Part shown: one piece after another, positions 13,946 to 62,697 of the stretch | Layout of the letters: every line of letters starts with the position of its first letter | Numbering within the stretch: position 1 is the first letter of the stretch | From: an uncultured Gammaproteobacteria bacterium | GTDB taxonomy: Bacteria > Patescibacteriota > Microgenomatia > UBA12405 > JAHJSD01 | NCBI GenBank assembly: GCA_964428655.1 | Contig: CAYRYE010000001.1 | Span: forward strand, 9,328-73,327 | Length of the DNA stretch: 64,000 bases | Direction of reading: 5' to 3' | Program-made: the position numbers and the translations under genes | The notes under the pieces: model-generated | Told to the model about the DNA's origin: nothing | Seen by the model: only the letters and a program-made list of their open reading frames with translations | Databases searched by the model: none

Positions 13946-16579
13946 TCAGTGACAGCGGATAAATTCAGCCACGCTGGCAACTGGTACGCTCTTAAAATTA
14001 ATTCTACCAGATCCGCCCCAGGCCTGAGCCACTTGAACCATACCGCTATCTAAATCAGCGCCGATGACGATAGCGATGTGACCATATGCTCCTGATGTCC
14101 AAATAGTGTTATCGCCAATTTGAATAGCAGCCATGTTTTCTCCTGGCGAATATACATGAGTACATTGGCCACAACCGCTTCCAACAAAGTGTTTAGCGTC
14201 ACCACAAGCGGGTAGATTTTGTTCAACGGCTCGTTTAAAACCAACACACTGAAGAGTTCCATCCCAAGCAAGTGATATTTTAAAAGTATCTATGATTCTC
14301 TCGGCAGAACCAATCAATTGTTGTAAGGTTTGGCTAGCTCGAAGACAGATAGCAGTCATGTTCATAGAGTTGTTAGTAACCGCCGAAATATTGCAGTCTT
14401 GAAGAATAAAGTTAATATAACAGGCAACTTTTGCCGATTGATTGTTTATACTTTGACAATAACCAACATCGCTTTCAAAAGGAAGCATGTCTCTTATTTC
14501 ACCAATAAGTTCTTCTTCGGTAATTCCTCTTTCAATTGGCGGAGCTAAAGTTTGGTTATACATTTGCATTGGTCCCAAGTTAATGAAAAACAAAACACCA
14601 AAAACGAGAACAAAAATAAGAGCAAGAGGGACAACAGTAGTAACGGTTCCTATGGCAAGGATAATGCCGACCGGGTAATAAATAATGTCTTTGAACCATT
14701 TCAGGACAGGAATTTTGCCAAGAATATCACGGAGTTTAGTTGATAGACCGAGAGTAAAGAAGTTTAAAACCTCAGGAATTTTAAGTTTTTCAGCAATCTT
14801 TTTGATTAGACTCCAGCCCAATCTTAGAGCTTCTGCTCCCAGCCAAATAAGAATACTGGCCCCACCAGTGGGGATGCCTAAAGCGGTGGCCAAAGCAACG
14901 GCAAGAGTTTCTCCGGCAAGGAGTTCTGCTGCTTTTTCAGCTGTCACAAGAACTCCTTTTTCGGCCAGTCTTTTAACTATTTTTTCAGCGGCGTATTTGT
15001 AAAACTTTGTTTTTATTTTCCCAGTAAGTTTTCCAGTAAGTTTTTTAATCGGGATTTTCTTTTTAACCCATCTGTTAAATCTACTTTTGGCTATGTGCTG
15101 ACCAAAATCGGTAACGGGTCTAACAGTTTCCATAATCGCATAGTTAGGGCTTTCTGAAACTTGGCAGGCGGTGCCACCAGGCTTATAAACAGTATCCCAA
15201 TAAGCGATTGCCGGATCAGAAGAGATTGTTTTGGCTGCTGGTTGTTCTTGGACATAATCGTAGAATTTCTGCCAAACATCAACTAACTCTTGCAATTTTG
15301 GTGTTTGGGCAAGTTGGGTGATGGTATATAAAATTGCTGGGGGGTTATTTTTTCCTGGCCTAAGAACATGGAAAATATTGATTGGTTTTGCAGGCAGGTT
15401 ATTGGTTTGTTCAACAAGAGTTTTTTGCCGAGGCATAGGCGTAACTGCCACCGCTCTGCTAAAGTAAGTTGGCAGGCTGGTGAGGGTTTGAACAGCAAGC
15501 TCTACAGCCGGAGTGACTGTTTCCGCGGATGGATCTAAACCAATGTTTGCCAGGTGTCCAATAACGATTTGCTCAACATTATTTTGGGCGTCTTGCCTGA
15601 TTTGTGTTGGCGTCATGTCTTTGGCAATTGCTTTAAGGATAGGAGTAACAGAAGTAATCATTCCTTGTACTAATTGAGTTCCTTCTTTTTCAGTTAGAGA
15701 AACATTGTGGTTTGACAAGACAATGGCAATAGTTGGAGTAGCGATTAGCGGGGCTATTCCTGACTGATCGGCTGTTTCATGAGCAGTTAGTGTTAAAGCA
15801 GCGGCAATTTGATTTAAGGCTTCAGGTGGTAAAGTAGTCGTGATTGATTCTGACAGTGATTGGGGTAGTTCTGGTGAAGGATTGGCGATGCGATAGGCAA
15901 CAGCCGTTGTGGCAGTTGAAAATTGATTTGTTTTGGCTAGTTTCCGGACTTGATCAACAATTGTTTTTCTGATTTCTGGTTGGGGAATAACTCCTTTGAT
16001 TGTGGTTTGTTGTACAGTGCCTGTTTGAAAAGAAGCAAATACCACTTCTTCTGTTTGAGTAGTGGTTAAAGGAATATTATCAACACTTGTGACGGTTGTT
16101 ATTTGTTCAGTTCTCTGTTCTAAAATTCGAGAGATAACCTTGTCTATTTCTGTTTGACTTAAACCATATCTTTCTAAAATTTTACTTAATTCTGTTTTGT
16201 CTCGGATTTCAGCAACAAGTCTTTCTCTTTCTTCTAAAGCTTGAAGCATTTCTTTAAGATTAGAAGGCACTTCACCATGAGTAATAGTATTGCCAGTGAT
16301 AGGCATTTCTTGATAAAAGAAAGCAGAAATTCTATGGAAGAAATCATAAAGATTTTCTTGTTCTTCTAAAGTAAGACCAAAAAGCTGTTCCAGACGAGCA
16401 AAAAGTTGGTTCAGTTGTTCATCAGGCCAACCCAGTTTTTTGAGCGCTTCTTGTTTGTTTGGAGTATCTGATACTCGAGTCGAGAGATCAAAAAAATATT
16501 CAGCGAGAGCGTTGTTTCTTGGTTCAGTAAGCTGGACTCTTGTTTTGGTTTGACTAATTGCCTCTATCTCTCTGGCCAT
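13946..16579 (-). CDS. Large multi-domain T4SS-associated protein: N-terminal Q/T-rich region, central polytopic membrane segment, C-terminal CHAP-type peptidoglycan hydrolase
   Basis: C-terminus carries C...GQCTHV...YGHIAIVIG, matching the CHAP Cys/His catalytic pattern. Several TM helices around residues 560-640. Resembles VirB1/VirB6-like components of Gram-positive conjugation systems. Confidence 0.55.
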   Translation of the reverse strand: MAREIEAISQTKTRVQLTEPRNNALAEYFFDLSTRVSDTPNKQEALKKLGWPDEQLNQLFARLEQLFGLTLEEQENLYDFFHRISAFFYQEMPITGNTITHGEVPSNLKEMLQALEERERLVAEIRDKTELSKILERYGLSQTEIDKVISRILEQRTEQITTVTSVDNIPLTTTQTEEVVFASFQTGTVQQTTIKGVIPQPEIRKTIVDQVRKLAKTNQFSTATTAVAYRIANPSPELPQSLSESITTTLPPEALNQIAAALTLTAHETADQSGIAPLIATPTIAIVLSNHNVSLTEKEGTQLVQGMITSVTPILKAIAKDMTPTQIRQDAQNNVEQIVIGHLANIGLDPSAETVTPAVELAVQTLTSLPTYFSRAVAVTPMPRQKTLVEQTNNLPAKPINIFHVLRPGKNNPPAILYTITQLAQTPKLQELVDVWQKFYDYVQEQPAAKTISSDPAIAYWDTVYKPGGTACQVSESPNYAIMETVRPVTDFGQHIAKSRFNRWVKKKIPIKKLTGKLTGKIKTKFYKYAAEKIVKRLAEKGVLVTAEKAAELLAGETLAVALATALGIPTGGASILIWLGAEALRLGWSLIKKIAEKLKIPEVLNFFTLGLSTKLRDILGKIPVLKWFKDIIYYPVGIILAIGTVTTVVPLALIFVLVFGVLFFINLGPMQMYNQTLAPPIERGITEEELIGEIRDMLPFESDVGYCQSINNQSAKVACYINFILQDCNISAVTNNSMNMTAICLRASQTLQQLIGSAERIIDTFKISLAWDGTLQCVGFKRAVEQNLPACGDAKHFVGSGCGQCTHVYSPGENMAAIQIGDNTIWTSGAYGHIAIVIGADLDSGMVQVAQAWGGSGRINFKSVPVASVAEFIRCH

Positions 16580-16586
16580 GGCTGGT

Positions 16587-18467
16587 TTAAACTTCTACTT
16601 TTATCGGTTGAATTGTTGGTCTTGATTTGGGTGATGGTGGGGTAGTTTTTTCCCTTTTCATTTCTAATAATTCTTCCGGGTTAGAGGTAATTACTTTGTG
16701 TTCGTTGGGAGAAGCAATGACTCGAATAGCCACATGGTTTTTGCCGGCAAAAAAGATTCCTTCACCGATATCAGCTCCCAAAAGCAATTGTCTTTCCCCC
16801 TCAGACAAGTAGAAAACATCAGTAACTTGATCCATGGCTGCCGGGTGCTGTTTGAGCAGTATTTGGATTGAAGAGTTAGTGACGATAGCCTTGCCGTAGT
16901 CAGATTGCAGGAAATCCTGGACATCTTGGGTAATGGTAGTAACGCCAAGATAATATTTCCTTGCCCTTTTGGCTAAGCTGTAAAGGAACTGAGCAGAATC
17001 TTTGTATTTCATTAGATACCAGGCCTCATCAACGACCAAAATGCGTCGTTTCATTTCTCGTCGGATTTTATTCCAAATAAAATCTAGGATAATATACATT
17101 GCTGTTGGTCGAAGGGCTTCCTCAAGATCTCGAATACCAAAGACAACAAATTTGTTTTTAATGTCAACATTAGTTTGAGAGTTGAACAAACCAGCGAATG
17201 AGCCTTTAATGAATTTTTCTAATCGGGCTGCTAAAGAAGCGGCCTTAGGATCTTCCATACCAATTAAGACTTTATAGAGGTCTTCAATTAAGGGCATTTC
17301 TTTTCCTTTTTGAGACTCTGGGTCAAGAGTGATACCTTTCATTTTGTAAGATTGAATTAGGGCTCGATCCAGCAGAGCCTCTTCTTCCGGATTTAACTCA
17401 CCCATAATTACCTTGAATAAGCCGTGAAGAGCCAGAATTTTGCGACCTAATTCATTTTCACTGTTTTCCTGGGAAGAAATTTCTAAATCGAAAGGATTTA
17501 TTTTTGAAGGCGAGTTAAAGCTAAAAGTGATATATTGGCCGCCAACAGCTTTGGCCAAATCCTGGTATTCGTTTTCCGGGTCAATGACCATGATTTCTGT
17601 ACCAAACATTAAAGATCGGAAAACTTCCAGTTTTATCATATAAGATTTTCCTGCGCCCGATTTAGCAAAAACGATAGAGTTCGCGTTTTCCAGGGAGAAT
17701 CGGTCAAAAATAACTAGTGAGCCATTGTGTTCGTTGATGCCGTACATGATTCCTTTGTCGTCAGAAAGATCAGAGGAGACAAAAGGAAAGGTTGTTGCCA
17801 GTGAAGTAGTGTCCATATTGCGAGTAATTTTGAGCAGATCTTGACAAATTGGCAAAGTGGTTTTAAACCCATTTTCCATTTGCAGAGTGGCATGTTTGGG
17901 GATAATTAAAAGTGATCCTAAGTTTGATTCAAGTTCCTTAGTGGTCTGGTTTAACTGGTCAATTGATTTAGCTCCAATAGTGATATAGAGACCGAGCTGG
18001 AAAAATTTCTCAATACCCTTAACCAGCTCTTCTTGCAAGGTAAGTGCATCCTCAAGTTTAGCTTTAGTAGCCGGATTGATTACTCTGCCTCGTTGAATGT
18101 CTGAGGAGAGTTCAGCTTCCATTTCAGCAATTTTGCGACGGAGATCGTCTAAGATTTCTTTACCTTCAGTGGGATAGATATACATGGAAGTATCTAGAGA
18201 GTGGTCGAAGTTGATTAACGATGAAAGCCAATTGGCGGAGACAAACCTGGGGTAGTTAACAATAAAAAGAGTTCGATAGTAACGATTATTAATTCTAACC
18301 CAATCAAAATCGACTTCAATAGCTGAAGGGGCGACAATGTCTTTTACAGAAACCAACCCAGCAGAAAACGAAACAGGTTTAGTTTTGTCAGTTGGATTAA
18401 CTGTTGTTTTTTGGTTTTTGGTTGACTTCTTTACTGGTTTGATTTTGTTGAAAAAATCTAGGATCAT
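16587..18467 (-). CDS. virB4: VirB4/TrbE-like type IV secretion ATPase (core and C-terminal ATPase part)
   Basis: DWVRINNRYYRTLFIVNYP... WL..L entry motif typical of Firmicutes-type VirB4; Walker A AKSGAGKSYMI; Walker B ILVVDEAWYLM. Confidence 0.85.
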   Translation of the reverse strand: MILDFFNKIKPVKKSTKNQKTTVNPTDKTKPVSFSAGLVSVKDIVAPSAIEVDFDWVRINNRYYRTLFIVNYPRFVSANWLSSLINFDHSLDTSMYIYPTEGKEILDDLRRKIAEMEAELSSDIQRGRVINPATKAKLEDALTLQEELVKGIEKFFQLGLYITIGAKSIDQLNQTTKELESNLGSLLIIPKHATLQMENGFKTTLPICQDLLKITRNMDTTSLATTFPFVSSDLSDDKGIMYGINEHNGSLVIFDRFSLENANSIVFAKSGAGKSYMIKLEVFRSLMFGTEIMVIDPENEYQDLAKAVGGQYITFSFNSPSKINPFDLEISSQENSENELGRKILALHGLFKVIMGELNPEEEALLDRALIQSYKMKGITLDPESQKGKEMPLIEDLYKVLIGMEDPKAASLAARLEKFIKGSFAGLFNSQTNVDIKNKFVVFGIRDLEEALRPTAMYIILDFIWNKIRREMKRRILVVDEAWYLMKYKDSAQFLYSLAKRARKYYLGVTTITQDVQDFLQSDYGKAIVTNSSIQILLKQHPAAMDQVTDVFYLSEGERQLLLGADIGEGIFFAGKNHVAIRVIASPNEHKVITSNPEELLEMKREKTTPPSPKSRPTIQPIKVEV

Positions 18468-19182
18468 CTTGTTTTAGCTTTACTCTTCCTTTAATAATAG
18501 CTCCTTGTTGATTTAAAGCGTCAATATTATCAACCAGACTTGATTCCTGATTATAAATCTGATAGAAAAGCTGGATTAACTCTTTGCTTTTAAGCTGTTT
18601 AATTGATAAACCCAGTCTACCAAAAAGACGAATTAAATGTTCTTTTTTGGGTTCTAAAGTTGCCTTAGCTCTTTCCAAGATCTTTTCTTTAGCCATAGGT
18701 AGTGATTTGTTTGTTTGTTTGTTTAATAGTGAGAGTGGGAGAGGCAGACTAGTTTTAACCGCTGTTTGGACTCCTAGTTCGACTGAAAAGAAAGGGATAA
18801 TTATATAGAAAGATTTGGCTAAAACGTTGTTTTTCTTAACTACTTCCTCGACGAATTGGCGATAAAGGATAATCTGTTTTTTCAACAGTGGTTCGTTGAT
18901 TTTAGCCTCTTGTTTTTTGAGACGATTAACATAATTGGAAACATCCTTTAAAGTGGATCGGATCACGATTTGAACTGGAAAAGTAAGTGAGTTGAGCATG
19001 GCGGCGTAAGTGTAGATCATTGCCTCTTGTTCTTTTTCAGAAAGAAGGTCAAAGTTAACTGATGAAGTTTCTAAAATCATAATACAAGACCCATTTTTTA
19101 AAATGGTTAAATCTTCCTTGATGTCTTCGATAGGGAGATGTTCTTGAGTGGTTCCTTTAATAGCAATTTTGTTTAAGTCCAT
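18397..19182 (-). CDS. VirB4 N-terminal-domain-like protein; likely the 5' portion of a split or frameshifted virB4
   Basis: ILETSSVNFDLLSEKEQEAMIYTYAAMLNSLTFPVQIVIRS resembles the N-terminal region of Gram-positive VirB4 ATPases. It overlaps the next ORF by 71 nt in a different frame. Confidence 0.5.
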   Translation of the reverse strand: MDLNKIAIKGTTQEHLPIEDIKEDLTILKNGSCIMILETSSVNFDLLSEKEQEAMIYTYAAMLNSLTFPVQIVIRSTLKDVSNYVNRLKKQEAKINEPLLKKQIILYRQFVEEVVKKNNVLAKSFYIIIPFFSVELGVQTAVKTSLPLPLSLLNKQTNKSLPMAKEKILERAKATLEPKKEHLIRLFGRLGLSIKQLKSKELIQLFYQIYNQESSLVDNIDALNQQGAIIKGRVKLKQDDPRFFQQNQTSKEVNQKPKNNS

Positions 19183-19188
19183 GGGAGC

Positions 19189-20037
19189 TTAGCTCTTGGT
19201 TGTAATTTTTAACGGTGAGATTACTTTGCCTTCTACCTTGATTTTGATTATATCAAACTGATAGCTTTCTTTTTCTGCCAATATTAGGTATTCACCATTG
19301 GCCAGAGGAGTGGCGGTTTTGAATTGTCCTAATTGATTGGTTCGTAAGGCTCGAACCGGGTTTTCAGAGATGTCTTGAATTTCAATAATTACATCTTCCA
19401 TGATTTTTCCGTCTTGATTTGTAACCATACCAACAATAATATTAGGGGTTGTTGGTGGTTGGGGCATAGGTATTTCCCCGAAAGCAGCTTCAATAGTTGG
19501 TTTCGGTGTCACCACAGTTTTAGGAATGTCGATTTCTACTCTAGGAGTGATGGTTGTTTTTCTTTCGGGTGGCTTTTGAATTTGAACAGGAGCAGTAACT
19601 TCTTTTTTCTGATCAGTCTTTTTTTGTTTTTTGGGAAGCGAGGCAAGAAACTCTTCTAATTGAGGTTTTTTTGATATAATGGGCTCTTCTTCTTCTTCTT
19701 CTTCCTCCTCCTCTTCTTTAAAGCTCGTGTCAAAGATATCTAGTGTGGTTAGTTGTTTTTGCCAGAGATAAATTGTTGGCGAAAGGACGCTTTTGACAAA
19801 AGCAAAAATCCAGACCTCTAGTGGTCTTTCATTGACAGGTAAGAAAGCTAGGGCGATTCCAAGGAGGCCAAAACTTAAAACTAAGGGCCATTTTATAATA
19901 AAAGATAGATGACTGGAGTAAAAAATAAAGGCAATAACTAGACCACCGGCAACCTTAAAAAACTGCTTCAAAGTCATATTTCCTACTAGTCGAAACTCGT
20001 AGGAAGAAATTTGTTGTGGGATGGGATGTTGTTCCAT
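19189..20037 (-). CDS. PrgI-family (VirB3-like) membrane protein with poly-Glu linker and C-terminal beta-sandwich (carboxypeptidase-regulatory-like) domain
   Basis: N-terminus ...ISSYEFRLVGNMTLKQFFKVAGGLVIAFIFY plus a second TM helix matches the PrgI/VirB3-like pattern. It sits directly upstream of virB4, as in Gram-positive T4SS. The EEEEEEEEEEE run is encoded by a GAA/GAG repeat at about 19690-19725. Confidence 0.6.
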   Translation of the reverse strand: MEQHPIPQQISSYEFRLVGNMTLKQFFKVAGGLVIAFIFYSSHLSFIIKWPLVLSFGLLGIALAFLPVNERPLEVWIFAFVKSVLSPTIYLWQKQLTTLDIFDTSFKEEEEEEEEEEEPIISKKPQLEEFLASLPKKQKKTDQKKEVTAPVQIQKPPERKTTITPRVEIDIPKTVVTPKPTIEAAFGEIPMPQPPTTPNIIVGMVTNQDGKIMEDVIIEIQDISENPVRALRTNQLGQFKTATPLANGEYLILAEKESYQFDIIKIKVEGKVISPLKITTKS

Positions 20038-52647: not shown

Positions 52648-54552
52648 ATGGGGGAACGAGATGAAATGCACATGATGGAAGAGGCCTCACGTCTTGGAGA
52701 ACAGTATAGGGAAATTGCATATGAGGGAATAATCTACGAAGAGAGAATTTTAGAGGCTTTAAAGTGGAAAACTGCAGAACAAGTTAATCTTGGGTGGTTG
52801 GAGGAAGTTATAGACGAGGGTCTTGCCTATCAAATGGGCAGATTGACAGAGAGATATGGCTACACTCTAAGTTCCGATGGTCCAGCCGCTTGGGAGTTAA
52901 CGAGACTGACAAGATTATTTTGTACTGTCGAGGAAGCCAGAGACAGGCCGATTACCAAAATTGCTGCGGCGGTAACAAGGGCGACTTTAGAAAATCTTGA
53001 CCGCCTAGGAAGAGACGAAATTGCGGGTTTCGATGGTGATGAAGCCGGGGAGGAAGACGGAGAAAAGTCAGGGCTTCAGTGGTATGATGTTTTGGCAGTT
53101 TCAGAAGCGGAAAGGGATAATCCCAAGTATGATGGCTGGCGAAGTCTGACAGCCAAAGAAGCTTTTAGGTTTAAATTATATGAGCTTCATGCTCGAGCAA
53201 CAGCAATTTTAAACATTACTACGGTTGACCAACAAGTTATGTTAGCTGCTGATGATGCTCAGGCTATGGTTGATTTGGTTTTAAGACAAAAGGATCTTCA
53301 TTTTCTAGACACTATTACTCCTGATTCCATGGTTTGGAAAGCTGCTTTTTCTGGTGAGTGGGGAGAGAAAGTTGATAGGGCTTTGTGGTTGATTGATGTG
53401 GTAGGAAGAGAAGGTTTTAGGTATGTTGATGAAAATAAAGAGAGTCGACATCTCAAAAAACCTTTTGCCGACAGTAAGGAATTTTCTGACGAAAGGGTCT
53501 TTGCCAATTTCATGAAAAGACTATATAAAGCTGCCGGTCGGGATATGAGTGCTGCTTTGTTTGCTTGGCAATTAGCTCGTGGTGTTTGGGGCATAATTGG
53601 CGAGTACGGATATACTGTAAAGGAGGAAGAAAAAAATGTTTGGAATCATAAGGGTGAACATTTAGGGAAGAAGAAAGTTAAAGTTCATAAAATTGGCGAT
53701 TCTCCATTTGTAACTAATCACCAAACTTGGACAATGCATACAGGCGCAAAAAGAGCGGCTGAATGGGGAATAACATGTTATGACCAAGTTGCTCATCCCC
53801 GAGGTGAGGAATTTCCTTTTCTTACTACCTATAGATTTGCTTTAGGTGGTTCTTTTGTTTCTCATGCGGGTTTGCCTTATTCTTTAGGTATTACAAAAGA
53901 TAAGGAATTGCTACAATTGCTACCCTCTTATTTAAAATCGGCAAAAATTGATTATGAAGGAAAGAAAGTTAGTCTTTACGATCTTTGGTCCGGGGAAATT
54001 ACAGGCAAAAGGATTCCTTTAGGTAAGTTGCCCTGGGGTGAAACACAAAGGGTTGAAACTGGTACTGATGAATCACTGCCTCTTGCCTCATTTGGCTTAT
54101 GGAGGTCTCTTCACTCGCGCGCTTTAGCAGTGGTTACCAAGCTGTTAAGAGGAAATCCACCGCTAAGAGATCTTACTTCAGAAGAATTTTGGCAAGGTTC
54201 AGTTTTTAGGCATCTTGCAAAAGTAACTCCAATTAATAATATTCCTGGCGACAGTGAGTATACCAAGCCTTCTGAGAGCTTTAGAACCAGACTGGTGTTA
54301 AGCTGGATATTAGCGAGAAGACCGTCCCTTTCCACAGACAAGGGATTGCTTGTTTTTCACTATGTTCACCCAGATGAACAATGGAAGGGCGTAAATGCTG
54401 ATGATTCGCCAGTCTCAGTAGCTAGAATACTCTGGCACGCGGTAAACACAAGCTTTCTTCGAGATAAAGACTTTGATTGGATAATGGAACAAGTGAAGGA
54501 GGTAGTTACTCTCACCCACGGAGAAAAGGCAGCCTTCTACAAAAAATCTTGA
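52648..54552 (+). CDS. Hypothetical cytoplasmic protein (634 aa), compositionally atypical (GC-richer, Glu/Trp/Arg-rich)
   Basis: Long uninterrupted ORF; no TM or signal peptide; no recognised motifs. Its codon usage visibly differs from neighbours, with many G/C-ending codons. Confidence 0.5.
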   Translation: MGERDEMHMMEEASRLGEQYREIAYEGIIYEERILEALKWKTAEQVNLGWLEEVIDEGLAYQMGRLTERYGYTLSSDGPAAWELTRLTRLFCTVEEARDRPITKIAAAVTRATLENLDRLGRDEIAGFDGDEAGEEDGEKSGLQWYDVLAVSEAERDNPKYDGWRSLTAKEAFRFKLYELHARATAILNITTVDQQVMLAADDAQAMVDLVLRQKDLHFLDTITPDSMVWKAAFSGEWGEKVDRALWLIDVVGREGFRYVDENKESRHLKKPFADSKEFSDERVFANFMKRLYKAAGRDMSAALFAWQLARGVWGIIGEYGYTVKEEEKNVWNHKGEHLGKKKVKVHKIGDSPFVTNHQTWTMHTGAKRAAEWGITCYDQVAHPRGEEFPFLTTYRFALGGSFVSHAGLPYSLGITKDKELLQLLPSYLKSAKIDYEGKKVSLYDLWSGEITGKRIPLGKLPWGETQRVETGTDESLPLASFGLWRSLHSRALAVVTKLLRGNPPLRDLTSEEFWQGSVFRHLAKVTPINNIPGDSEYTKPSESFRTRLVLSWILARRPSLSTDKGLLVFHYVHPDEQWKGVNADDSPVSVARILWHAVNTSFLRDKDFDWIMEQVKEVVTLTHGEKAAFYKKS

Positions 54553-54588: not shown

Positions 54589-56112
54589 TTATCTACCTTG
54601 TAGTTTCCTTAGGAGTGCTTCGTATAAGACATCTATGCCTTTCGCTGGCCCTCCTTTAGTCACAACTTCGCTACCACTACCTTTCTTTTCATATCCCAAT
54701 CGTTGTCCGTATTTACCTCTTGCTATAGCTGACCTTACTGATGGAGCGGCACCCATGAGTCCGTATTTAGCACCTGTTTTAACTGGCCCGAATGCCTCGC
54801 CGATGGCGGTGCCAAATCCTGGATCTTTTATTCCCATGGCGTTTCTTATTATATCAGGAATTTGGGCTAAAATTAACAAAAATCCCATGCCGATGATGGT
54901 TTTGATGAAAAACGCAGATCTGGAACCGGTTACGTCTAACAGGGGAGCGGCCCACATTGATTCTAAATTAGCTGATTGAAGAATAAAGACACCAATCATA
55001 GACACAACGACTACTGCCGGAAAAATTAGAATTTCAGCAAAGATTCCCTTTATCCAAGTGCCGAACCCACCGGCTTGGAAACCAGGGATGGCCCCCATCA
55101 TTATCTGGAGCGGTCCTATGATAACAGCAAAAATAATTTTTATATATGCTTTAGTTAGTCCAAATAATAATTTAAAAAGCAAAAACAAAGCGATAACTGT
55201 CCAAATTAACATTATCAAGGCTGGTCCAGCAAGTAAGCCGATAGCAGCTCCAATCAAAAATTGTCCTCCTATGAGGGTACCGATGACAGTGCCAACAACG
55301 CCGCCAAGAGCTGTTGCAAGTACGAATATACCATTTCCTGCATTAGTAACGGAAAAAAACATTGGCAAAAGAGCGAAAAAGCCGCTATTAATGACTCTGG
55401 TAGGCGTGACCTCGCCTAGTTTCACCGGGCCCAATTGAAACAGTACTGGTTCAATGCCGCCTGTTTTTAAAACTGTAATCCCAAGGGCTATTAAGACATA
55501 CATTAGATCAATCAAAAATCCGGCGATGGCGTAGGAGAAGGTGACTAAAATCAAGGCGCCGATGATTTTGGGCAAAGCGTTTTCAATGGTGATGACAGCT
55601 TGGGGCGATATTTTTACCCGGAACATAATCGCTAGACCGATGCCAACAAAGATAAGAGTAAAAAGAACATAAGTAACATTTCTAAAAGCTTTCCAAATAG
55701 GCAGGATTGGCTGTAAACCGGTGAAACCAACTCCTTGAGCGTAGGCTGGCGCCGCTCCCAAACGATGTAAAACATCATAGGCATAGTAAACTCCTGAAGC
55801 CGGTGGATTAGCGTAAACAGCGCCAATTAAATTAGTGGTGAATTGAAGAGCGCCTATTTCCTGTTTTATTTTTCCTGATTGGGTTCCTTCAGGTGAACCT
55901 TCTCCAGTTCCAGCCATGTTTTTCAAAAAGCCAAAAACAGTATCACTTAAAGTATGTTCATGAAGTCCTTCAGCCGTTAATTTATCTTTATTATTTAAAT
56001 AGTCTTCGTAGCTTGAAGCAGCAAAGGTGAGTTTGAGAGAACCAGCAATAAGAACGCTGAAACAAAAAAATAAGAAGCTTAAACTGATGATTTTCTTTGC
56101 TTTTCTATTCAT
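54589..56112 (-). CDS. VirB6/TrbL-like polytopic membrane protein (putative T4SS channel component)
   Basis: Signal peptide, about 100-aa periplasmic region, then 7-9 Gly/Ala-rich TM helices and a short cytoplasmic tail; genomic context next to the pilin array and virB-like genes. Confidence 0.45.
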   Translation of the reverse strand: MNRKAKKIISLSFLFFCFSVLIAGSLKLTFAASSYEDYLNNKDKLTAEGLHEHTLSDTVFGFLKNMAGTGEGSPEGTQSGKIKQEIGALQFTTNLIGAVYANPPASGVYYAYDVLHRLGAAPAYAQGVGFTGLQPILPIWKAFRNVTYVLFTLIFVGIGLAIMFRVKISPQAVITIENALPKIIGALILVTFSYAIAGFLIDLMYVLIALGITVLKTGGIEPVLFQLGPVKLGEVTPTRVINSGFFALLPMFFSVTNAGNGIFVLATALGGVVGTVIGTLIGGQFLIGAAIGLLAGPALIMLIWTVIALFLLFKLLFGLTKAYIKIIFAVIIGPLQIMMGAIPGFQAGGFGTWIKGIFAEILIFPAVVVVSMIGVFILQSANLESMWAAPLLDVTGSRSAFFIKTIIGMGFLLILAQIPDIIRNAMGIKDPGFGTAIGEAFGPVKTGAKYGLMGAAPSVRSAIARGKYGQRLGYEKKGSGSEVVTKGGPAKGIDVLYEALLRKLQGR

Positions 56113-56154
56113 CTATCTCTGTTGATTATAATTTTCTATTTTCTTCCGGTCAAG

Positions 56155-58932
56155 TTATAAAGGCGACCCCTGCCATTCGGCAGGAGTATTGTATAAACTC
56201 CATAATTTTTTAGTTAATTCCAGACTGCCTCCCGGAGCATAAAGTTTTCTCCCTTCATCTCTTTGTATATCTGTATGGCCGCTAATAGCGTCTGGTTTTT
56301 CAAGCCAATGTTTCTCCTCATCTATGGACTCCAGTGAGGAACCCCCGCCGGTTCCGTTAAATTTAGCTTCTATCGGCAAATTTTTGGCGTTGACTTTTTT
56401 ACCGTTAGCCTCTTCAATTTCATATACAAGTTGGTCTGCAATCTCTCCAATTTGGAGTCCGAAAAGATAATTTGTACATTGAAGGACTTTATTATAATTA
56501 GTGACATAAAGAGTATCTCGGGAGGTGACTCTTGCTTCTGCAGTACAACGATTAGGAACATCTTCGTCATTGTAATTAACAGAACAATTGTCCACTTTGA
56601 ATGAATCAGGGAATAGTAGATTTCTTGCTTCCCTAGCCAAACCAGTTGGATTGTCGTAATCTTCATTGGCTTTATTGGTAGTCGGTCCGTTGGCTTTTAC
56701 TCCTTTACCGAGATCGCAGGGGAAATAGAAACGGCTTCTATCTGTTTCTGAAAGACTGGTGTGCAGCTCGGCTGGCAAGCTCATACCTGCCATTCTCGAA
56801 CAGGCTTCGACAGCGCCAAGAGCGTTGGGGATAAAAAGTTTTGCTACCTGGCAAATCTGGCATTGATCATCAACGTCGGTTATAAAGCTGTTTCTTATTG
56901 GTTCGTCGTTGACTTTGACAGGCAATACCCGGTACCTTTGTTGTGGACTTAACTGACCAAAATAACTGCTAAAAACCTCATTGCCTTCTTCTCTTTTACA
57001 TTTACTTTCTTTTGTAGGGTAGCAGGATTCAAGGTAAACCGGCAGATCAGAGTGGCTAATTCCTCCATCTATAGTCATCTGAGCCCAAGTATAAAAGCCA
57101 TAAAGAGCCGCATCCATAGTTTTCGGTATCAAACAAGCCCACTGAGGTGTGTGGGCACACATTGCTTCATAATTTAAATCATTTTCTATAAAATGTTGTT
57201 CATTACAACAATACAGAAGACTTGGTCTAACGGGAATAGGATTGGATGTACACCCGTCAACATTGACTCTGTCAATTCTTCCATCGTCCATTTTTTCAGT
57301 AAAGTCTTTTTCCAACAACATTCCTTTTCCTTCGCAGATCCAAAACAACGGTCGGTCAAAAAGAGCTGTTTCATTCCTTTGTTGAGGAGATCTTGGATCG
57401 TCTGATACTGCCGCCCAAAGTAAGTCATTAGTGATCCAATCAGTGCCTAACTCTCTATATTTCGGCCCAGAAATATATTTACTGGCAAATCCGGTTAAAC
57501 GTTGACTTCTTCTTTTAGCTAGTTCTTCCCAACCGCCTTCTTTGAAAACATCAACGTAGGGCATGTTTCCTCCATAAGCAGAACCAGTATACCAATCAAT
57601 TATTTCTTGAAAGACTTTTAAACCGGCAAAAACATGATGATGGATGGAGAGTTGGTTTATTAGTTCAATAGAGAGTTCAGAGGAATGATGGGTGGGGAAA
57701 AATTTGAACTGGTGGGTAATTATGTTTGATGAGGGGACACAGAATTCAGCCATTCCGTTGTTGAATTCTATAGCCCTTTTATATAATGCGTAATTAATAT
57801 TTGGATCTTCTCCCGGATAGGTATTGTCTTTATCGGAAGGTACCCAATCCAGGCTCCAGGGAAGACGAAACAGATTTCCTAGCCCAGGAATAAAGCTGAA
57901 GAGTCTTTGGAGCAAAGAAGGCTCGTTATTCGGAGTTGAATTACCAGGAAACCAGTTGCGGTTTACTTTAGCCTCGTCCCAGGAAGCTTCTCTGGTTGAG
58001 CGGTTGAGAGCGCCTTCAACCAGACTGCGAAGGGACGGTTTACCTCCGCTTTTGCAGGTGTCGCAGTGGCAATCTCCTTTCAAGGCGTCAATGACACAGT
58101 CAGCATCCCAAAGATTCCATGATCCGCTGTAATCACCAGGAGCAAAAGAAAAAATTGCCCAGCCAATGATATTCTGAGATTGCCAGAAATCAACTACTGT
58201 TTGGCCGTCGGCGCCGGCGCAATACATATTACAGAGGTCATTTTCTTGATAGGTTGGCGGACCGCTTTCACCATTTTCCAAGGCGCCGGTTTCGGTTAGA
58301 ACTACTGGCAGAGAGCCAGCTCCCCTAACTCCCAGTTCACCTAGCTTATTCCGGTAATTTCTAGCCATGCCCGGAGAATAAATATGCATGGAAATAACAG
58401 AGTAGGGGATATTTTCTAACAAGCCAACCATCGTTGGAGTATTTGGATGGTATGGATCCCAAGCCGGTGAGGTTAAAATGGCATTGGAAGGCAAAACACT
58501 AGCCAAAGTATTAATATATTTTTTTACTCTACTACCACATTCTTGTAAAGATAAATTGCCGCATTCAGTGTCCAATCGGGCTGGTTCGTTCCAGGGTTCA
58601 AAATAGACTGTTTTATTAATTTTCTTTAAAAAATTAGCCCAGATATTGGCTGCCTCTTGAGGATTATTAAGCATTTTATCGCCTATTGGCAGCCAGTGGC
58701 TGTGGCCGCGGATAACCCAATTAAAGGAGGAAGAGTTGATTACATTAACCAACGCATCGCTTTTAGGATCGGCGGCAACGACTACCAAGGCTCCGTCGCC
58801 AAAATGCTCTTGGATTTTATTAATAGTATTTCCACTCCAATCATTAATAATATTGACATAGGCAAAAGTTTTAACAACAGATAACAGGTAACAGGTGGTA
58901 ATGGAAAGTAGGAAGATTGAAAACTTTTTCAT
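56155..58932 (-). CDS. Secreted 925-aa Cys-rich protein with N-terminal glycoside-hydrolase-family-5-like TIM-barrel domain
   Basis: Signal peptide MKKFSIFLLSITTCYLLSVVKTFA. GH5 acid/base signature VYFEPWNEP and nucleophile LPVVLTETG. The C-terminal ~600 aa has more than 30 Cys. Confidence 0.55.
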   Translation of the reverse strand: MKKFSIFLLSITTCYLLSVVKTFAYVNIINDWSGNTINKIQEHFGDGALVVVAADPKSDALVNVINSSSFNWVIRGHSHWLPIGDKMLNNPQEAANIWANFLKKINKTVYFEPWNEPARLDTECGNLSLQECGSRVKKYINTLASVLPSNAILTSPAWDPYHPNTPTMVGLLENIPYSVISMHIYSPGMARNYRNKLGELGVRGAGSLPVVLTETGALENGESGPPTYQENDLCNMYCAGADGQTVVDFWQSQNIIGWAIFSFAPGDYSGSWNLWDADCVIDALKGDCHCDTCKSGGKPSLRSLVEGALNRSTREASWDEAKVNRNWFPGNSTPNNEPSLLQRLFSFIPGLGNLFRLPWSLDWVPSDKDNTYPGEDPNINYALYKRAIEFNNGMAEFCVPSSNIITHQFKFFPTHHSSELSIELINQLSIHHHVFAGLKVFQEIIDWYTGSAYGGNMPYVDVFKEGGWEELAKRRSQRLTGFASKYISGPKYRELGTDWITNDLLWAAVSDDPRSPQQRNETALFDRPLFWICEGKGMLLEKDFTEKMDDGRIDRVNVDGCTSNPIPVRPSLLYCCNEQHFIENDLNYEAMCAHTPQWACLIPKTMDAALYGFYTWAQMTIDGGISHSDLPVYLESCYPTKESKCKREEGNEVFSSYFGQLSPQQRYRVLPVKVNDEPIRNSFITDVDDQCQICQVAKLFIPNALGAVEACSRMAGMSLPAELHTSLSETDRSRFYFPCDLGKGVKANGPTTNKANEDYDNPTGLAREARNLLFPDSFKVDNCSVNYNDEDVPNRCTAEARVTSRDTLYVTNYNKVLQCTNYLFGLQIGEIADQLVYEIEEANGKKVNAKNLPIEAKFNGTGGGSSLESIDEEKHWLEKPDAISGHTDIQRDEGRKLYAPGGSLELTKKLWSLYNTPAEWQGSPL

Positions 58933-59300
58933 GGTCCTGGGATTTTAAACTCAGTGACATTTGCTCCGGTGAACTCTTTAATCAAAATCAAGATAAACCA
59001 GCCAGCAATAGTTAAAACTAAACCGATTATGGCAGTGGTAAGAGTGTTTTTAGCTGACTGTAATCCCTTTTGTTCACCACCAGCAAAGATTAATTTAAAA
59101 CCACCAACAATCAGCATTGCTCCAAAAGCCAAGCCGGCGATGGTAGTGGCTATTCTCAAAATGTTGATAAATAGACACTGAAAACCTTGAAGGGTGGCAA
59201 CAGTGGGGTCGGTAGCACTAACACAGTCTCCACTCCAAAATACGGGATCAGCTGCAAAAACTGGTCCCCAAAAGACAATTCTTTTCTTGAGATAATTCAC
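58929..59300 (-). CDS. VirB2/TrbC-like pilin-type protein (paralog 3 of 8)
   Basis: ...MLIVGGFKLIFAGGEQKGLQSAKNTLTTAIIGLVLTIAGWF...FKIPGP. Confidence 0.5.
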   Translation of the reverse strand: MNYLKKRIVFWGPVFAADPVFWSGDCVSATDPTVATLQGFQCLFINILRIATTIAGLAFGAMLIVGGFKLIFAGGEQKGLQSAKNTLTTAIIGLVLTIAGWFILILIKEFTGANVTEFKIPGP

Positions 59301-59303
59301 TGT

Positions 59304-59669
59304 TTATCCTTGCAGACTGGGAATTTCTAGTTGCAGAATATTGATTCCAAACAGAGCTTCAATCAATTTTATAATTGCCCAGGCAACGAAAATAATGGCC
59401 AAACCAATCAAAGCATGAGTGATTTGGTTTCGGGCATTTTCGACCTCTGTCTTATCACCTTTAGACGTGATCCATCGAACTCCGCCCCAGATCAAAATGG
59501 CAAAAAATACCAAGGCGACAATAACCAAGACCAATCGGATCAATCCAGAAACAACACTGGCAATTGTTAAACCGCCAAGAGCACTAAATTGTCCTCCAGG
59601 AGAAATATCAATTGGTTCTTGGGCCCAAGCGGGTTTTGCTATTAGAGCCATTAGTTTTTCCATGTTCAC
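59304..59669 (-). CDS. VirB2/TrbC-like pilin-type protein (paralog 4 of 8)
   Basis: ...FAILIWGGVRWITSKGDKTEVENARNQITHALIGLAIIF...INILQLEIPSLQG. Confidence 0.5.
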   Translation of the reverse strand: MNMEKLMALIAKPAWAQEPIDISPGGQFSALGGLTIASVVSGLIRLVLVIVALVFFAILIWGGVRWITSKGDKTEVENARNQITHALIGLAIIFVAWAIIKLIEALFGINILQLEIPSLQG

Positions 59670-59706
59670 CTCCTTTCAAGAATGCGACATACAACAATTT
59701 TATAAA

Positions 59707-60045
59707 TTATAATTGTGGTAGAGTAATTTGCAGGTTCTCAAATCCACTTAAACCGAAAACAAATCCAATTATTCTAATAATAGCAAAGATGGAAAAAACA
59801 ACCAAGAGGCCAACAAGAGCAAAAGTTAGCTGTTTTTGGGCTTCTTCAATTTTGTTTTTCTCTCCCTGACTATTGATCCACTTAAGTCCTCCCAGTAAAA
59901 AGTGAACTAGGAAGAAAAAGAAGCCGACGATAATTAACCAATGAATAAGAAACGGCAGAGCGCGATTGAAAAAATCAACACCTTCTAAATTTTTTACTGA
60001 GTCTTTTAAAACCGGATTTTCTAACCCTTGGGCAAAGATTTTCAT
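59707..60045 (-). CDS. VirB2/TrbC-like pilin-type protein (paralog 5 of 8)
   Basis: MKIFAQ... HFLLGGLKWINSQGEKNKIEEAQKQLTFALVGLLVVF...LQITLPQL. Confidence 0.5.
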   Translation of the reverse strand: MKIFAQGLENPVLKDSVKNLEGVDFFNRALPFLIHWLIIVGFFFFLVHFLLGGLKWINSQGEKNKIEEAQKQLTFALVGLLVVFSIFAIIRIIGFVFGLSGFENLQITLPQL

Positions 60046-60047
60046 CT

Positions 60048-60470
60048 CTATGGCGTTAACCTATTAATTGCTCCTGGAATATCCAGGAAATCAACATGCA
60101 GTAAATGGCCAACTAAAGATAGTAAGAAAATAGCGGCAATAACGACGGCAAGACCGATTAGTGAATTGGTAATTTTCTTTTGAGCGTCTTGAATTTTCTG
60201 AGCTTCGCCGCCGGCGGAAACCAAGTTGTAGCCAGCGATAATGATTTGAACAATGAACCAAATCCCGGCAACAGTAGTCATCAAACCAATGACAATGGAG
60301 ACAGCTCTGCTGAACATTTTTCCTCCCTCGCCAGCCCCTTCTCCTTCAAGTCCGAGAGGTCCAATTCCTCTTAACGGTGGTAAGTCCTTAGGAACTTGGG
60401 CTAAAACTGATTTGGTAATTTTACTGAGGTCCATAGATTTTTGGTAACAAAATTGCGTCCCAATTCCCAA
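60048..60470 (-). CDS. VirB2/TrbC-like pilin-type protein (paralog 6 of 8; start may be internal)
   Basis: ...IIIAGYNLVSAGGEAQKIQDAQKKITNSLIGLAVVIAAIF...FLDIPGAINRLTP. Confidence 0.5.
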   Translation of the reverse strand: MGIGTQFCYQKSMDLSKITKSVLAQVPKDLPPLRGIGPLGLEGEGAGEGGKMFSRAVSIVIGLMTTVAGIWFIVQIIIAGYNLVSAGGEAQKIQDAQKKITNSLIGLAVVIAAIFLLSLVGHLLHVDFLDIPGAINRLTP

Positions 60471-60801
60471 AAATTAAACGTCCGAAAATTGCTGCTAGAG
60501 TAAACGATCCGGCTGCCACCAGCAATCCAAGTGAGCTTAACCAAATTTTAGCCCAAGCGTTGGTGATTTTCTGAGCATCACCGTTGGCGCTCATGAAGCC
60601 ATAACCGGCAATAATAAAATTAAGAAGAGCAAAAATGCCGGCCCCAACAACTAAAAGTTTAAGGATATTATTAAGAAATGTAATCAGACCCTCACCTCCC
60701 GTTCCGGAGTACTTATCTACCCCGGGAGGGGGTTTAATCTGGCCAAAAAAGTTGGCGGCTAGAGCCGGTTGGTTAAAAAGGCGCTTCAAGGATATTGACA
60801 C
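60421..60801 (-). CDS. VirB2/TrbC-like pilin-type protein (paralog 7 of 8)
   Basis: ...FIIAGYGFMSANGDAQKITNAWAKIWLSSLGLLVAAGSF... Confidence 0.5.
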   Translation of the reverse strand: MSISLKRLFNQPALAANFFGQIKPPPGVDKYSGTGGEGLITFLNNILKLLVVGAGIFALLNFIIAGYGFMSANGDAQKITNAWAKIWLSSLGLLVAAGSFTLAAIFGRLIFGNWDAILLPKIYGPQ

Positions 60802-61084
60802 CAGTGATTACTTGAATTAATTGAATAACAAAATAACTGACAAAAATAACAACAAATCCGGCAACAGCAGATGTAACAGCCTTTTGTCCTTTTTGTACTT
60901 TACTGCTGTCTTGGTTTCCTGCTCCGATGATAATGCTAATGCCGCCAAAAATCAAGAGAAAAAGAAAAATTATGCCCGCCAGTCCGTAAATATTAAAAAG
61001 AATGGTTGAAAAAAATTCACCCAGGGTGCCAAATTTATCAGCAACTCCGTATTCTTTACCAATATCAACGGCAAAAACTTGCAT
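60773..61084 (-). CDS. VirB2/TrbC-like pilin-type protein (paralog 8 of 8; trimmed to internal Met MQVFAVD..)
   Basis: ...LIFGGISIIIGAGNQDSSKVQKGQKAVTSAVAGFVVIFVSYF...NILEAPF. The 200-aa form in the track would overlap the SBP gene on the other strand. Confidence 0.5.
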   Translation of the reverse strand: MQVFAVDIGKEYGVADKFGTLGEFFSTILFNIYGLAGIIFLFLLIFGGISIIIGAGNQDSSKVQKGQKAVTSAVAGFVVIFVSYFVIQLIQVITGVNILEAPF

Positions 61085-61161
61085 AAAATCAGGATAACAA
61101 AAGTTGGTTAAAAAGTAAATTGCTGATATATTAGATTTTGAAGGGCATTTAAAGGGTAAAG

Positions 61162-62697
61162 ATGGAAGAAAGTAAAGAGAAAGAATTACCACAGAGAAAA
61201 CCACAAGTGGAAGCACAGGAAAAAGTTCCTCAAAAAGAGGCGCCCGGTTCTGTTCAAGAAAAACCAACTGATAGGTCAATAGATGAGGTTTTAAAAGAAG
61301 CTCGAGAGATAGCTGGTCGTAGTCAGGATCAGCCTTCATCTGGGGAGCAAATTTCATCTCCAGAACAAACATCATCTGCTGAAAAACCTCCTTGGCTGTT
61401 TATTGCTTTAGCGTTAGTAATTATCTTAATTATTGGTCTGGTAATTATTTTTTTAACCAAAGGCAAGAAGAAAACCGAGCCGATAACTTTGACCTACTGG
61501 GGCTTGTGGGAACCGGAATCGGTCGTTCAAGGGATGATTGCTGACTGGGAGAAGGATAATCCCAATATTAAGGTCCAGTATATTAAGCAAGACAAAAATG
61601 ATTATCGGGCTCGATTGCAGTCAGCTTTTTCTCGGGGTGAAGGGCCTGATATCTTTCGCTTTCACGCTACCTGGCTGCCAGTGCTTAAAAATGATCTGGC
61701 GCCTTTGCCTAACACGGTGGTTGCGTCTTTAGGATTAGACGATAATTATTTTCCGATCGTTGTTGATTTATTAAAAACAGGTGGTCAATTCTATGGTGTT
61801 CCTCTTATGATAGATACTTTAGCCCTTTATTACAATAAAGATATTTTGGATGCTGCCAATAAATCTCCACCAATAACTTGGTGGGGGTTAGAAAACCTAG
61901 CTAAAGAGTTAACAGTGAGACCTGATCAAAGAATTTCCCTGGCCGGAGTTGCCTTAGGAACAACCAATAATGTTGATCACTGGAGCGATATTATTGGTCT
62001 AATGATTTATCAAAATGGAGGCAGACCAGATGAAATCGGCGCTTTGGTGGAAGATGTTTTGAAATATTATTTAAGATTTAAAAACACAGCTAAGGTTTGG
62101 GATGAAACTTTGCCAAATTCAACTCTGGCTTTTTCCAATGGAAAGCTGGCTTTTTACTTTGGTCCGTCTTGGCGCGTTTTCAATCTCTTGGAAGCTAACC
62201 CTAACCTTAACTTTGGTATTACCACTGTGCCTCAACTGCCAAAACTAAAAGAGACTGATTGGGAGGCGGCTGAAAAAGGTGAAGAGGAATTAACCAACAT
62301 TGGCTGGGCTAGTTTTTGGACGGAGGGGGTAGCAGTTAAAAGCGAGTATCAAGAGGAAAGTTGGCTATTTTTAGAGTTTTTGGGATCAAAGGAAACTTTG
62401 CAAAAACTCTATACTGCCCAAAGCCAAATTCGTCTCTTTGGAGAGATTTATCCTAGATCTGATTTGGCTTCCAGTTTAGAGAGCGATCCTCTTATTGGAT
62501 CGTTTGTCAAGCAAGCTAAAGTGTCCCAAAGCTGGTACTTGTCTTCCTTTACTCACGATGCTATTGGAGTTAATGAAAGAATTATTAAGTATTATGAAAA
62601 TGCCATCAATGCCCTTGACCAGGGTGAGCGAGAAGAAAAGGTGTTAGAAACTTTAAACAGCGGTTTAGGACAAGTATTGGGTCAATATGGGATTTAA
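61162..62697 (+). CDS. ABC-transporter extracellular solute-binding protein (family 1, carbohydrate-type) with membrane anchor and long Glu/Gln/Ser-rich N-terminal region
   Basis: TM PWLFIALALVIILIIGLVIIF followed by LTYWGLWEPE...DNPNIKVQY...GEGPDIFRFHATW, a typical SBP_bac_1 pattern. Confidence 0.7.
   Translation: MEESKEKELPQRKPQVEAQEKVPQKEAPGSVQEKPTDRSIDEVLKEAREIAGRSQDQPSSGEQISSPEQTSSAEKPPWLFIALALVIILIIGLVIIFLTKGKKKTEPITLTYWGLWEPESVVQGMIADWEKDNPNIKVQYIKQDKNDYRARLQSAFSRGEGPDIFRFHATWLPVLKNDLAPLPNTVVASLGLDDNYFPIVVDLLKTGGQFYGVPLMIDTLALYYNKDILDAANKSPPITWWGLENLAKELTVRPDQRISLAGVALGTTNNVDHWSDIIGLMIYQNGGRPDEIGALVEDVLKYYLRFKNTAKVWDETLPNSTLAFSNGKLAFYFGPSWRVFNLLEANPNLNFGITTVPQLPKLKETDWEAAEKGEEELTNIGWASFWTEGVAVKSEYQEESWLFLEFLGSKETLQKLYTAQSQIRLFGEIYPRSDLASSLESDPLIGSFVKQAKVSQSWYLSSFTHDAIGVNERIIKYYENAINALDQGEREEKVLETLNSGLGQVLGQYGI

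Follow-up and report, generated by a model that had tools for sequence, protein, structure and literature searches.

The analysis presented here concerns a 64,000-nucleotide stretch of contig CAYRYE010000001.1 (hereafter the window), in which a block of eight minus-strand genes (54589-61375) encodes, in the order of transcription, six VirB2-like pilins, a secreted protein of 925 amino acids (aa), and a polytopic membrane protein of 507 aa. Our reading, to which we give a probability of about 0.6, is that the 925-aa protein is an envelope glycan hydrolase associated with a type IV secretion system (T4SS) or its pilus, encoded beside a cryptic VirB6 of the Microgenomatia. The combination of a Sec-type signal, a predicted barrel of glycoside hydrolase (GH) clan GH-A with a conserved pair of glutamates, coupling to pilin and VirB6-like genes, and fusion of the same domain to wall-hydrolase modules in relatives argues for an exported retaining glycosidase that serves a T4SS or pilus. 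The open reading frames (ORFs), signal peptide, predicted fold, conservation, synteny, and domain fusions on which this reading draws were all obtained with computational tools.

The assignment of the N-terminal domain starts from its predicted fold. AlphaFold2, supplied with a 13-sequence alignment, models the 925-aa protein with a mean predicted local distance difference test score (pLDDT) of 76.7, and residues 27-285 of the model form eight strand-helix units with pLDDT mostly between 80 and 93. In this prediction, strand 4 (residues 109-112) leads into P-W-N115-E116-P, strand 7 (residues 210-215) carries E214 at its end, H183 and Y185 end strand 6, and the aromatic residue W258 ends strand 8. 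Such a layout, with glutamates at strands 4 and 7, is that of the 4/7 superfamily and hence points to clan GH-A. Two motifs that a first-pass annotation of the window had read as catalytic signatures, VYFEPWNEP (residues 109-117) and VVLTETG (residues 210-216), are indeed present and are invariant in a family of 13 members; the individual invariant positions are R75-G76, Y110-F111, P113-W114-N115-E116-P117, Y185, T213-E214, and G216. A database of 5.8 billion proteins holds 13 relatives of the 925-aa protein, and their best-conserved part is the N-terminal region of about 270 residues.

Comparison with known structures leads to the same clan. A Foldseek search of the PDB with the barrel model gave 34 hits at E <= 1e-3, almost all from clan GH-A, headed by GH128 and a GH26 lichenase and followed by GH79, GH51, GH50, GH5, GH10, GH39, and GH1. 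The spacing between Glu116 and Glu214 is 98 residues, compared with 97 for two GH128 matches whose entry names cite the mutants E102A and E199A. When the fold was searched against BFVD, TIM barrels of phage and giant-virus glycosyl hydrolases were the sole matches. At the level of sequence, a wider profile (alignment A5) run against PDB sequences returned 12 matches up to E = 10, all of them hydrolase or transglycosylase chains, and every chain among the 12 with a named family belongs to clan GH-A: a GH2-type catalytic domain (1.7e-3), GH72, GH5, and GH26. In the alignment between A5 and GH72, the NE motif pairs with GNE and TE-G pairs with SEYG, in register; GNE and SEYG are the catalytic motifs of GH72.

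On the basis of predicted fold and motif, the domain is classified here in clan GH-A, as a putative family for which no model exists and whose nearest relatives are GH128 and GH26. The first-pass annotation had called the protein a GH5-like hydrolase. At the level of the clan this stands, through the predicted barrel and the glutamates on strands 4 and 7, but the family itself was rejected: PF00150 (Cellulase, GH5) finds nothing in the 925-aa protein up to E = 10 (among its close homologues, one scores E = 1.3e-3), and the nearest folds and profiles are those of GH128 and GH26, with GH5 one of many. PF11790 (Glyco_hydro_cc, GH128) does not match the 925-aa protein either. The core claim of a hydrolase survives, since a TIM barrel is predicted and its fold matches lie in clan GH-A. 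With GH128, GH26, and, more remotely, GH5, GH79, GH51, GH10, and GH72, the domain shares a predicted (beta/alpha)8 barrel, NE(P) after strand 4, a glutamate on strand 7, and a conserved arginine, tyrosine, and rim aromatic residue; its compact size of about 270 residues is also that of GH128 and the GH26 lichenase. It differs from known members of the clan in its additional conserved cysteine pairs and the CxxxxxxxxCHCxxC motif at the domain end, in its level of identity to them (10-16%), in that no GH model of Pfam reaches threshold on the 925-aa protein, in its fusion to a 630-residue region of no recognised type, and in its apparent confinement to the Patescibacteria.

Additional insight is gained from the wider domain family. 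A profile of the N-terminal domain, searched against 1.84 billion cluster representatives, identified 118 proteins at E <= 1e-3, and in almost all of these the domain begins about 30 residues into a protein of 600-2300 aa. Across 126 aligned sequences, N115 is kept in 123, E116 in 121, Y185 in 113, and R75 in 111, and both E214 (117/117) and G216 (116/116) are kept in every ungapped sequence. Because both carboxylates are retained across the family, an active enzyme is favoured over a relic that only binds sugars. Pfam models applied to 44 distant relatives matched Glyco_hydro_cc/GH128 in three (best 1.4e-7), Cellulase/GH5 in two (2e-4), and GH10 in one, and the same 44 proteins include fusions to wall-hydrolase domains, namely SLT in two, SLT_3 in two, and CHAP in one. 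P0142 joins the GH-A domain to SLT (4.5e-18), and P0151 joins it to the same Cys-rich middle region that the window's 925-aa protein has and then to SLT (8e-17); P0143 and P0154 have this SLT module in common with them. Two very long relatives, P0215 and P0244, carry source names of M23/NlpD type (peptidoglycan DD-metalloendopeptidase or NlpD-type). The taxon names attached to family members are exclusively Ca. Shapirobacteria, Ca. Beckwithbacteria, and Ca. Dojkabacteria, and the GH-A domain family appears to be confined to the Patescibacteria.

The remainder of the 925-aa protein is consistent with an exported product. It has a Sec-type signal and no further membrane segment. The first-pass annotation had counted more than 30 cysteines in the C-terminal 600 or so residues, a figure that has to be corrected: 16 follow residue 295, and the entire protein has 25, of which eight fall in the barrel domain and one in the signal peptide. 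The mature protein thus has an even number (24), and nearly all cysteines are kept in 11 full-length homologues. At the junction between barrel and C-terminal region lies an invariant motif, CVIDALKGxCHCxxC (C279-C293), which could form a small zinc site or a disulfide knot; the confidence of the AlphaFold2 model is low just past it. The C-terminal stretch of about 630 residues has no match in Pfam, the PDB, or BFVD and no detected relative outside the close family, and a hidden Markov model of this region, run against 246 collected proteins, matched the close family and P0134, P0135, P0136, P0140, and P0151 only. We regard it as probably extracellular and disulfide stabilised. Three close homologues (P0007, P0009, and P0011) carry a further C-terminal extension of 205-230 aa (7175-7792 in L001) that the window's protein does not have. 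A segment of this extension, KE-GG...NP-NGEGICGF, can be aligned to the catalytic motif of the SLT domain in P0151; the hhalign probability is, however, 2%, and an SLT domain is not claimed.

The organization of the locus links this protein to pilin genes. All six ORFs of the array that the first-pass annotation had described match PF18895 (T4SS_pilin), with E-values between 1.8e-10 and 6.8e-4; two of the matches exceed the gathering score, and the other four fall short of it. The start codon of the 925-aa gene shares ATGA with the stop codon of the last pilin gene, and a spacer of 42 nt separates the 925-aa and 507-aa genes. Both ORFs lie exactly where the first-pass annotation had drawn them; it had, however, put them upstream of the array, and on the minus strand they are downstream of it in the sense of transcription. 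Pilin arrays of the same kind also precede the homologous genes in related loci. The order of pilins, GH-A protein, and 507-aa homologue is found in every close locus whose contig is long enough to show it (L001, L003, and L012-L018), and it is also kept for the distant relatives P0157 (L006) and P0142 (L007); in L008, a pilin gene is nearby, but the contig ends. In L004, the module of pilins, slot protein, and VirB6-like protein is contiguous with PrgI-like, TraC-like, VirB4, and CHAP genes. Several of the public metagenome-assembled genome records that carry this Patescibacteria-type locus (among L011-L016 and L018) are titled "uncultured Gammaproteobacteria" or "Bacteroidales," titles that are likely placeholder names or the result of mis-binning.

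The second protein of interest, of 507 aa, has an N-terminal hydrophobic helix, about 100 residues outside the membrane, and then seven to eight long hydrophobic helices (residues 128-425), in agreement with the layout of signal-like segment, outside region, and transmembrane helices given by the first-pass annotation. Its AlphaFold2 model has a pLDDT of 79.7. Its homologues number more than 1213, and a Pfam domain is absent from every one of them; the few that are sensibly named come from Patescibacteria, including Shapirobacteria. In a fold search of 350,542 PDB chains, R388 TrwI/VirB6 chains took ranks 1-4, 6, and 9, the first four with a Foldseek probability of 0.82-1.0, and rank 5 went to DotA of the Legionella Dot/Icm T4SS machine. 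A homologue of the 507-aa protein is present in 15 loci and follows a pilin array in all of them, wherever the contig reaches upstream. We therefore consider it likely that the protein is VirB6-like, an assignment based on fold rank and gene context and not on membership at the level of sequence. In the first-pass annotation, it had been described as similar to VirB6/TrbL, which finds support in fold rank and context and none in sequence, as no TrbL, VirB6, or PrgH match was found.

It is conceivable, with a clearly lower probability, that the 507-aa protein is unrelated to VirB6 and is instead a Patescibacteria-specific membrane protein, such as a platform for pilin insertion or assembly or a transporter, that resembles VirB6 only as a bundle of helices. 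The results that speak for this alternative, and so against a VirB6, are that TrbL (PF04610) matched none of 50 family members at E <= 1, that the family profile found no match among PDB sequences, that hhalign against PrgH of pCF10 gave a probability of 0.4%, and that the TrwI fold scores are weak (E = 0.02-0.8 and TM-score 0.18-0.43; at E = 0.02, TM-score 0.25-0.41 and root mean square deviation about 10 A). Against it stand the concentration of VirB6 chains and DotA at the top of so large a search, the place of the L004 homologue ahead of the PrgI-like and VirB4 genes, where a VirB6 is expected, and the fact that a detectable VirB6 is otherwise rare in Microgenomatia (PMC12102498). Like VirB6/TrwI and PrgH, the 507-aa protein is polytopic, with more than five helices, and its best PDB folds are TrwI chains; the neighbourhood of its homologue in the L004 cluster matches that of PrgH in pCF10, and, as with VirB6, this homologue precedes the PrgI-like (VirB3-like) and VirB4 genes, from which other genes separate it. 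It differs in being about twice the length of PrgH (266 aa), with the matched TrwI chains of the PDB holding 217-272 residues, in its N-terminal signal-like helix and outside segment, in having no sequence-level relation to VirB6 or PrgH, and in belonging to a family of more than 1200 members without a Pfam domain.

When these results are placed into the context of what is known of Patescibacteria, a mechanism can be proposed. Chromosomal MPF_FATA-like T4SSs, often near the origin, are described for this group, as are arrays of 2-11 VirB2 genes, found with particular frequency in Microgenomatia, with pilins that are highly variable (PMC12102498), and S. epibionticum, a cultivated Saccharibacterium and the one genetically tractable Patescibacterium, cannot do without its T4SS and pilin array (PMC10633639). 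The T4SS genes of the window match this picture, and the genome is probably that of a member of class Microgenomatia. The block would then be the pilus and channel module of a chromosomal T4SS of monoderm type (MPF_FATA-like), in which six divergent VirB2-like pilins are encoded first, the gene of the Sec-exported 925-aa protein is translationally coupled to the last of them, and the 507-aa protein may be the strongly diverged VirB6 of the lineage. The domain of about 270 residues could act as a retaining clan GH-A glycosidase, taken here to be catalytically competent, with Glu116 as the putative acid/base and Glu214 as the putative nucleophile. Such an enzyme may cut a cell-envelope glycan and so open a passage for the pilus or channel, with a function equivalent to that of the VirB1/PrgK wall hydrolases or in partnership with them. 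Catalysis, substrate, location, and any physical contact of the protein with the pilus or VirB6 are the parts of this proposal that we infer.

The comparison with VirB1 is suggested by the literature as well. VirB1 is mostly undetected in Patescibacteria and VirB6 is "scarce" in Microgenomatia; the authors of that survey remark that other glycosidases might replace VirB1, and SLT and CHAP are module types of the VirB1/PrgK hydrolases of monoderm systems (PMC12102498). A text search of the literature found no paper describing a glycoside hydrolase in Patescibacteria pilin arrays. Like the VirB1-type proteins PrgK of pCF10, TraG of pIP501, and TcpG, which combine SLT and CHAP, the 925-aa protein is a large exported multi-domain protein within a T4SS gene set, predicted here to cut glycans, and relatives of its N-terminal domain carry SLT, SLT_3, or CHAP, with two more bearing M23/NlpD-type names. 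It differs in having neither SLT nor CHAP itself and a TIM barrel in place of a lysozyme-like or papain-like fold; moreover, its gene is beside those of the pilins and the VirB6-like protein and not beside VirB4, after which a separate CHAP-like protein is encoded.

Several results weigh against a T4SS-associated glycan hydrolase and should be set beside the evidence above. Pfam and NCBIfam scans of the 925-aa protein itself gave no match, its full sequence found only chance matches among PDB sequences (to a cytochrome bc1 subunit), and the Pfam scans detected no SLT, lysozyme-like, or CHAP domain in it. The barrel is 10-16% identical to GH-A structures with target-normalised TM-scores of about 0.6, values from which a substrate cannot be inferred, and the top PDB fold match, 6ubd, is a non-catalytic GH128 sugar-binding protein. 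No clan GH-A enzyme is known to cleave peptidoglycan. At the level of the locus, a CHAP-like candidate of 877 aa already adjoins VirB4 in this genome, and more remote members of this domain family, in L009 and L010, have no pilin genes beside them. Furthermore, where the 507-aa homologue is 34-41% identical (L004 and L005), the slot between pilins and this homologue is filled by unrelated secreted proteins, one of 525 aa with 19 cysteines (L004, 6380-7957) and one of 728 aa (L005, 5776-7962), neither with a Pfam match; BLASTP of the 925-aa protein against both found no similarity. The position of the slot is thus constant and its occupant is swapped between lineages, which implies that the slot does not hold a fixed part of the machine.

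The same turnover bears on where the putative enzyme would act. Our preferred reading, the T4SS-associated envelope hydrolase, slightly favours the host envelope at the contact site over the cell's own wall as the target, because a CHAP-like protein already follows VirB4, because the slot occupant is exchanged between lineages as a host-range determinant would be, and because the gene is placed and coupled like that of a pilus-associated subunit. It could be speculated, at rather low probability, that the protein is instead a housekeeping analogue of VirB1 that opens the cell's own wall locally for assembly of the T4SS or pilus and has no role at the host. The fusions to SLT, CHAP, and SLT_3, together with the two M23/NlpD-type names, would suit this function, since they are the module types of VirB1/PrgK hydrolases, and substitution of the mostly missing VirB1 by other glycosidases has been proposed (PMC12102498). 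However, the position right after VirB4, held in S. epibionticum by essential hydrolases (PMC12102498), is taken here by the separate CHAP-like protein, a housekeeping assembly factor is unlikely to be exchanged for unrelated proteins between lineages, and peptidoglycan is not a known substrate of clan GH-A.

Comparably doubtful is a role, also raised in the first-pass annotation, as an enzyme or adhesin at the tip of the pilus, in which the protein would occupy the position of VirB5, dock on the VirB6-like platform, and be raised by polymerisation of VirB2, so that its glycosidase domain binds or cuts glycans on the host surface. In R388, VirB5 sits on VirB6, and the R388 fold matches of the 507-aa protein are entries of this stalk complex. 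The place of the gene between pilins and VirB6-like gene with its ATGA coupling, the secretion of the product without a membrane anchor, and the turnover in the slot of unrelated, often Cys-rich secreted proteins, as expected of a part that recognises the host, all favour a tip protein, as does the high variability of the pilins themselves (PMC12102498). On the other hand, neither the sequence search nor the fold matches listed revealed similarity to VirB5, the protein is about four times the size of VirB5, and there is no evidence for a Patescibacteria pilus with a tip protein. By analogy, and in position and concept only, the protein could be likened to VirB5 and to the depolymerases of phage tail-spikes in the location of its slot, its secretion, its variability between lineages, and a putative glycan-cutting head, but neither its sequence nor its fold resembles VirB5, and a beta-helix is absent. 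The boldest form of this idea, which we hold to be improbable, would be an ultrasmall epibiont with a clan GH-A glycanase in the VirB5 position on a VirB2-type pilus with a cryptic VirB6 at its base, which drills through polysaccharide of the host envelope and whose tip module would be exchanged between lineages to suit their different hosts.

Still further from the evidence is a polysaccharidase for nutrient scavenging that feeds a nearby sugar ATP-binding cassette transporter and for which the pilin neighbourhood is incidental. A solute-binding protein gene (SBP_bac_8/1) does flank the pilin array, also in L001 and L003, clan GH-A enzymes typically degrade polysaccharides of plants, fungi, or algae, and some distant members of the domain family are away from pilins. 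We consider this explanation very improbable, as the order of pilins, GH-A protein, and VirB6-like protein persists on unrelated contigs to relatives at profile E 1e-17 to 1e-29, translation of the 925-aa gene is coupled to that of the last pilin gene, and the domain is repeatedly fused to peptidoglycan hydrolase domains and not to carbohydrate-binding modules.

Other features of the window complete the description of the system (Table 1). About 35 kb separate the module of pilins, GH-A protein, and VirB6-like protein from the core operon of the T4SS, and the genome thus carries the system in separate places. The core operon adjoins dnaN and lies at the minimum of the cumulative GC skew, and on these two grounds it is probably beside the replication origin. 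The gene for the VirD4-like coupling-protein candidate stands alone, distant from both T4SS loci. Within the block, the VirB6-like gene may have a promoter of its own at 56125-56153, in the 42-nt spacer ahead of it, the best match of a consensus scan; the total number of sigma-70-like matches in the region was not above the shuffled expectation, and the site is a lead.

Convergent on the 507-aa gene is a gene for a protein of 634 aa, at the position of which an opposite-strand gene of 577-736 aa is present in the six related loci reached by gene calls (L001 and L003-L007). The 634-aa protein has strong homology to L005_642 and L001_577 and weak homology to L003_624, and it has only five homologues among 5.8 billion proteins, which indicates a fast-evolving gene. 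The protein may belong to the module of pilins, GH-A protein, and VirB6-like protein as a cytoplasmic component that has gone unrecognised. Genes for the solute-binding protein and Cpn10 flank the block on one side and those for VanW, RNase H, DUF4012, and Fpg on the other; these flanking genes are chromosomal and syntenic in relatives (L001 and L003), and an origin of the block as a mobile element was rejected on this ground.

Table 1. Coordinates of features discussed in the text, numbered by position in the window.
Feature	Position	Strand	Remarks
dnaN	12390-13520	+	adjoins T4SS core operon
T4SS core operon	13946..20037	-	PrgI/VirB3-like, 261-aa ORF, VirB4-like ATPase, 877-aa protein
877-aa protein	13946-16579	-	CHAP 0.0051, below cut-off
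VirB4-like ATPase	16587-18467	-	P-loop_TraG 1.1e-33, CagE_TrbE_VirB 3.4e-4
261-aa ORF	18397-19182	-	
PrgI/VirB3-like gene	19189-20037	-	Pfam PrgI 5.1e-7
VirD4-like coupling-protein candidate, 780 aa	36012..38354	-	TrwB_AAD_bind 7e-7, TraG-D_C 2.2e-6, T4SS-DNA_transf 5.7e-4
634-aa gene	52648..54552	+	no signal peptide, no known domain; convergent on 507-aa gene
507-aa ORF	54589-56112	-	polytopic membrane protein, VirB6-like candidate
Promoter-like site	56125..56153	-	TTGACC-17 nt-TATAAT, 11/12; best match of consensus scan in region
925-aa ORF	56155-58932	-	secreted protein, directly after last pilin
C-terminal region, residues 296-925	56158..58047	-	lineage-specific mixed alpha/beta, 16 conserved Cys
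Cys motif at barrel/C-terminal junction, residues 279-295	58048-58098	-	
N-terminal catalytic-type domain, residues 25-295	58048..58860	-	predicted (beta/alpha)8 barrel, clan GH-A
Putative nucleophile Glu214	58291-58293	-	
Putative acid/base Glu116	58585-58587	-	
Signal peptide, residues 1-24	58861..58932	-	MKKFSIFLLSITTCYLLSVVKTFA; sole hydrophobic segment of 925-aa protein; Ala24 invariant
VirB2-like (T4SS_pilin) array, six genes	58929..61375	-	PF18895 matches, all six ORFs
Pilin ORF (first transcribed)	60773-61375	-	
Pilin ORF	60421-60801	-	
Pilin ORF	60048-60470	-	
Pilin ORF	59707-60045	-	
Pilin ORF	59304-59669	-	
Pilin ORF (last transcribed)	58929-59300	-	stop codon overlaps start of 925-aa ORF
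Solute-binding protein gene	61162-62697		SBP_bac_8/1

In conclusion, the T4SS of these bacteria is known as a whole, and a GH-A module within it and a VirB6 candidate for the Microgenomatia appear to be new. The locus offers candidates for two gaps left by the published survey, the missing VirB1 hydrolases and the rarely detectable VirB6 of Microgenomatia (PMC12102498). One is a previously unmodelled family of clan GH-A, with 118 cluster representatives in 1.84 billion proteins, encoded between pilins and a channel protein; the other comprises more than 1200 membrane proteins with a fold that points to VirB6. Knowledge of both families would help to annotate the genomes of this very large, uncultured group of bacteria, and together they suggest that the T4SS machine of the tiny, probably host-dependent Patescibacteria uses a new kind of wall-cutting tool.

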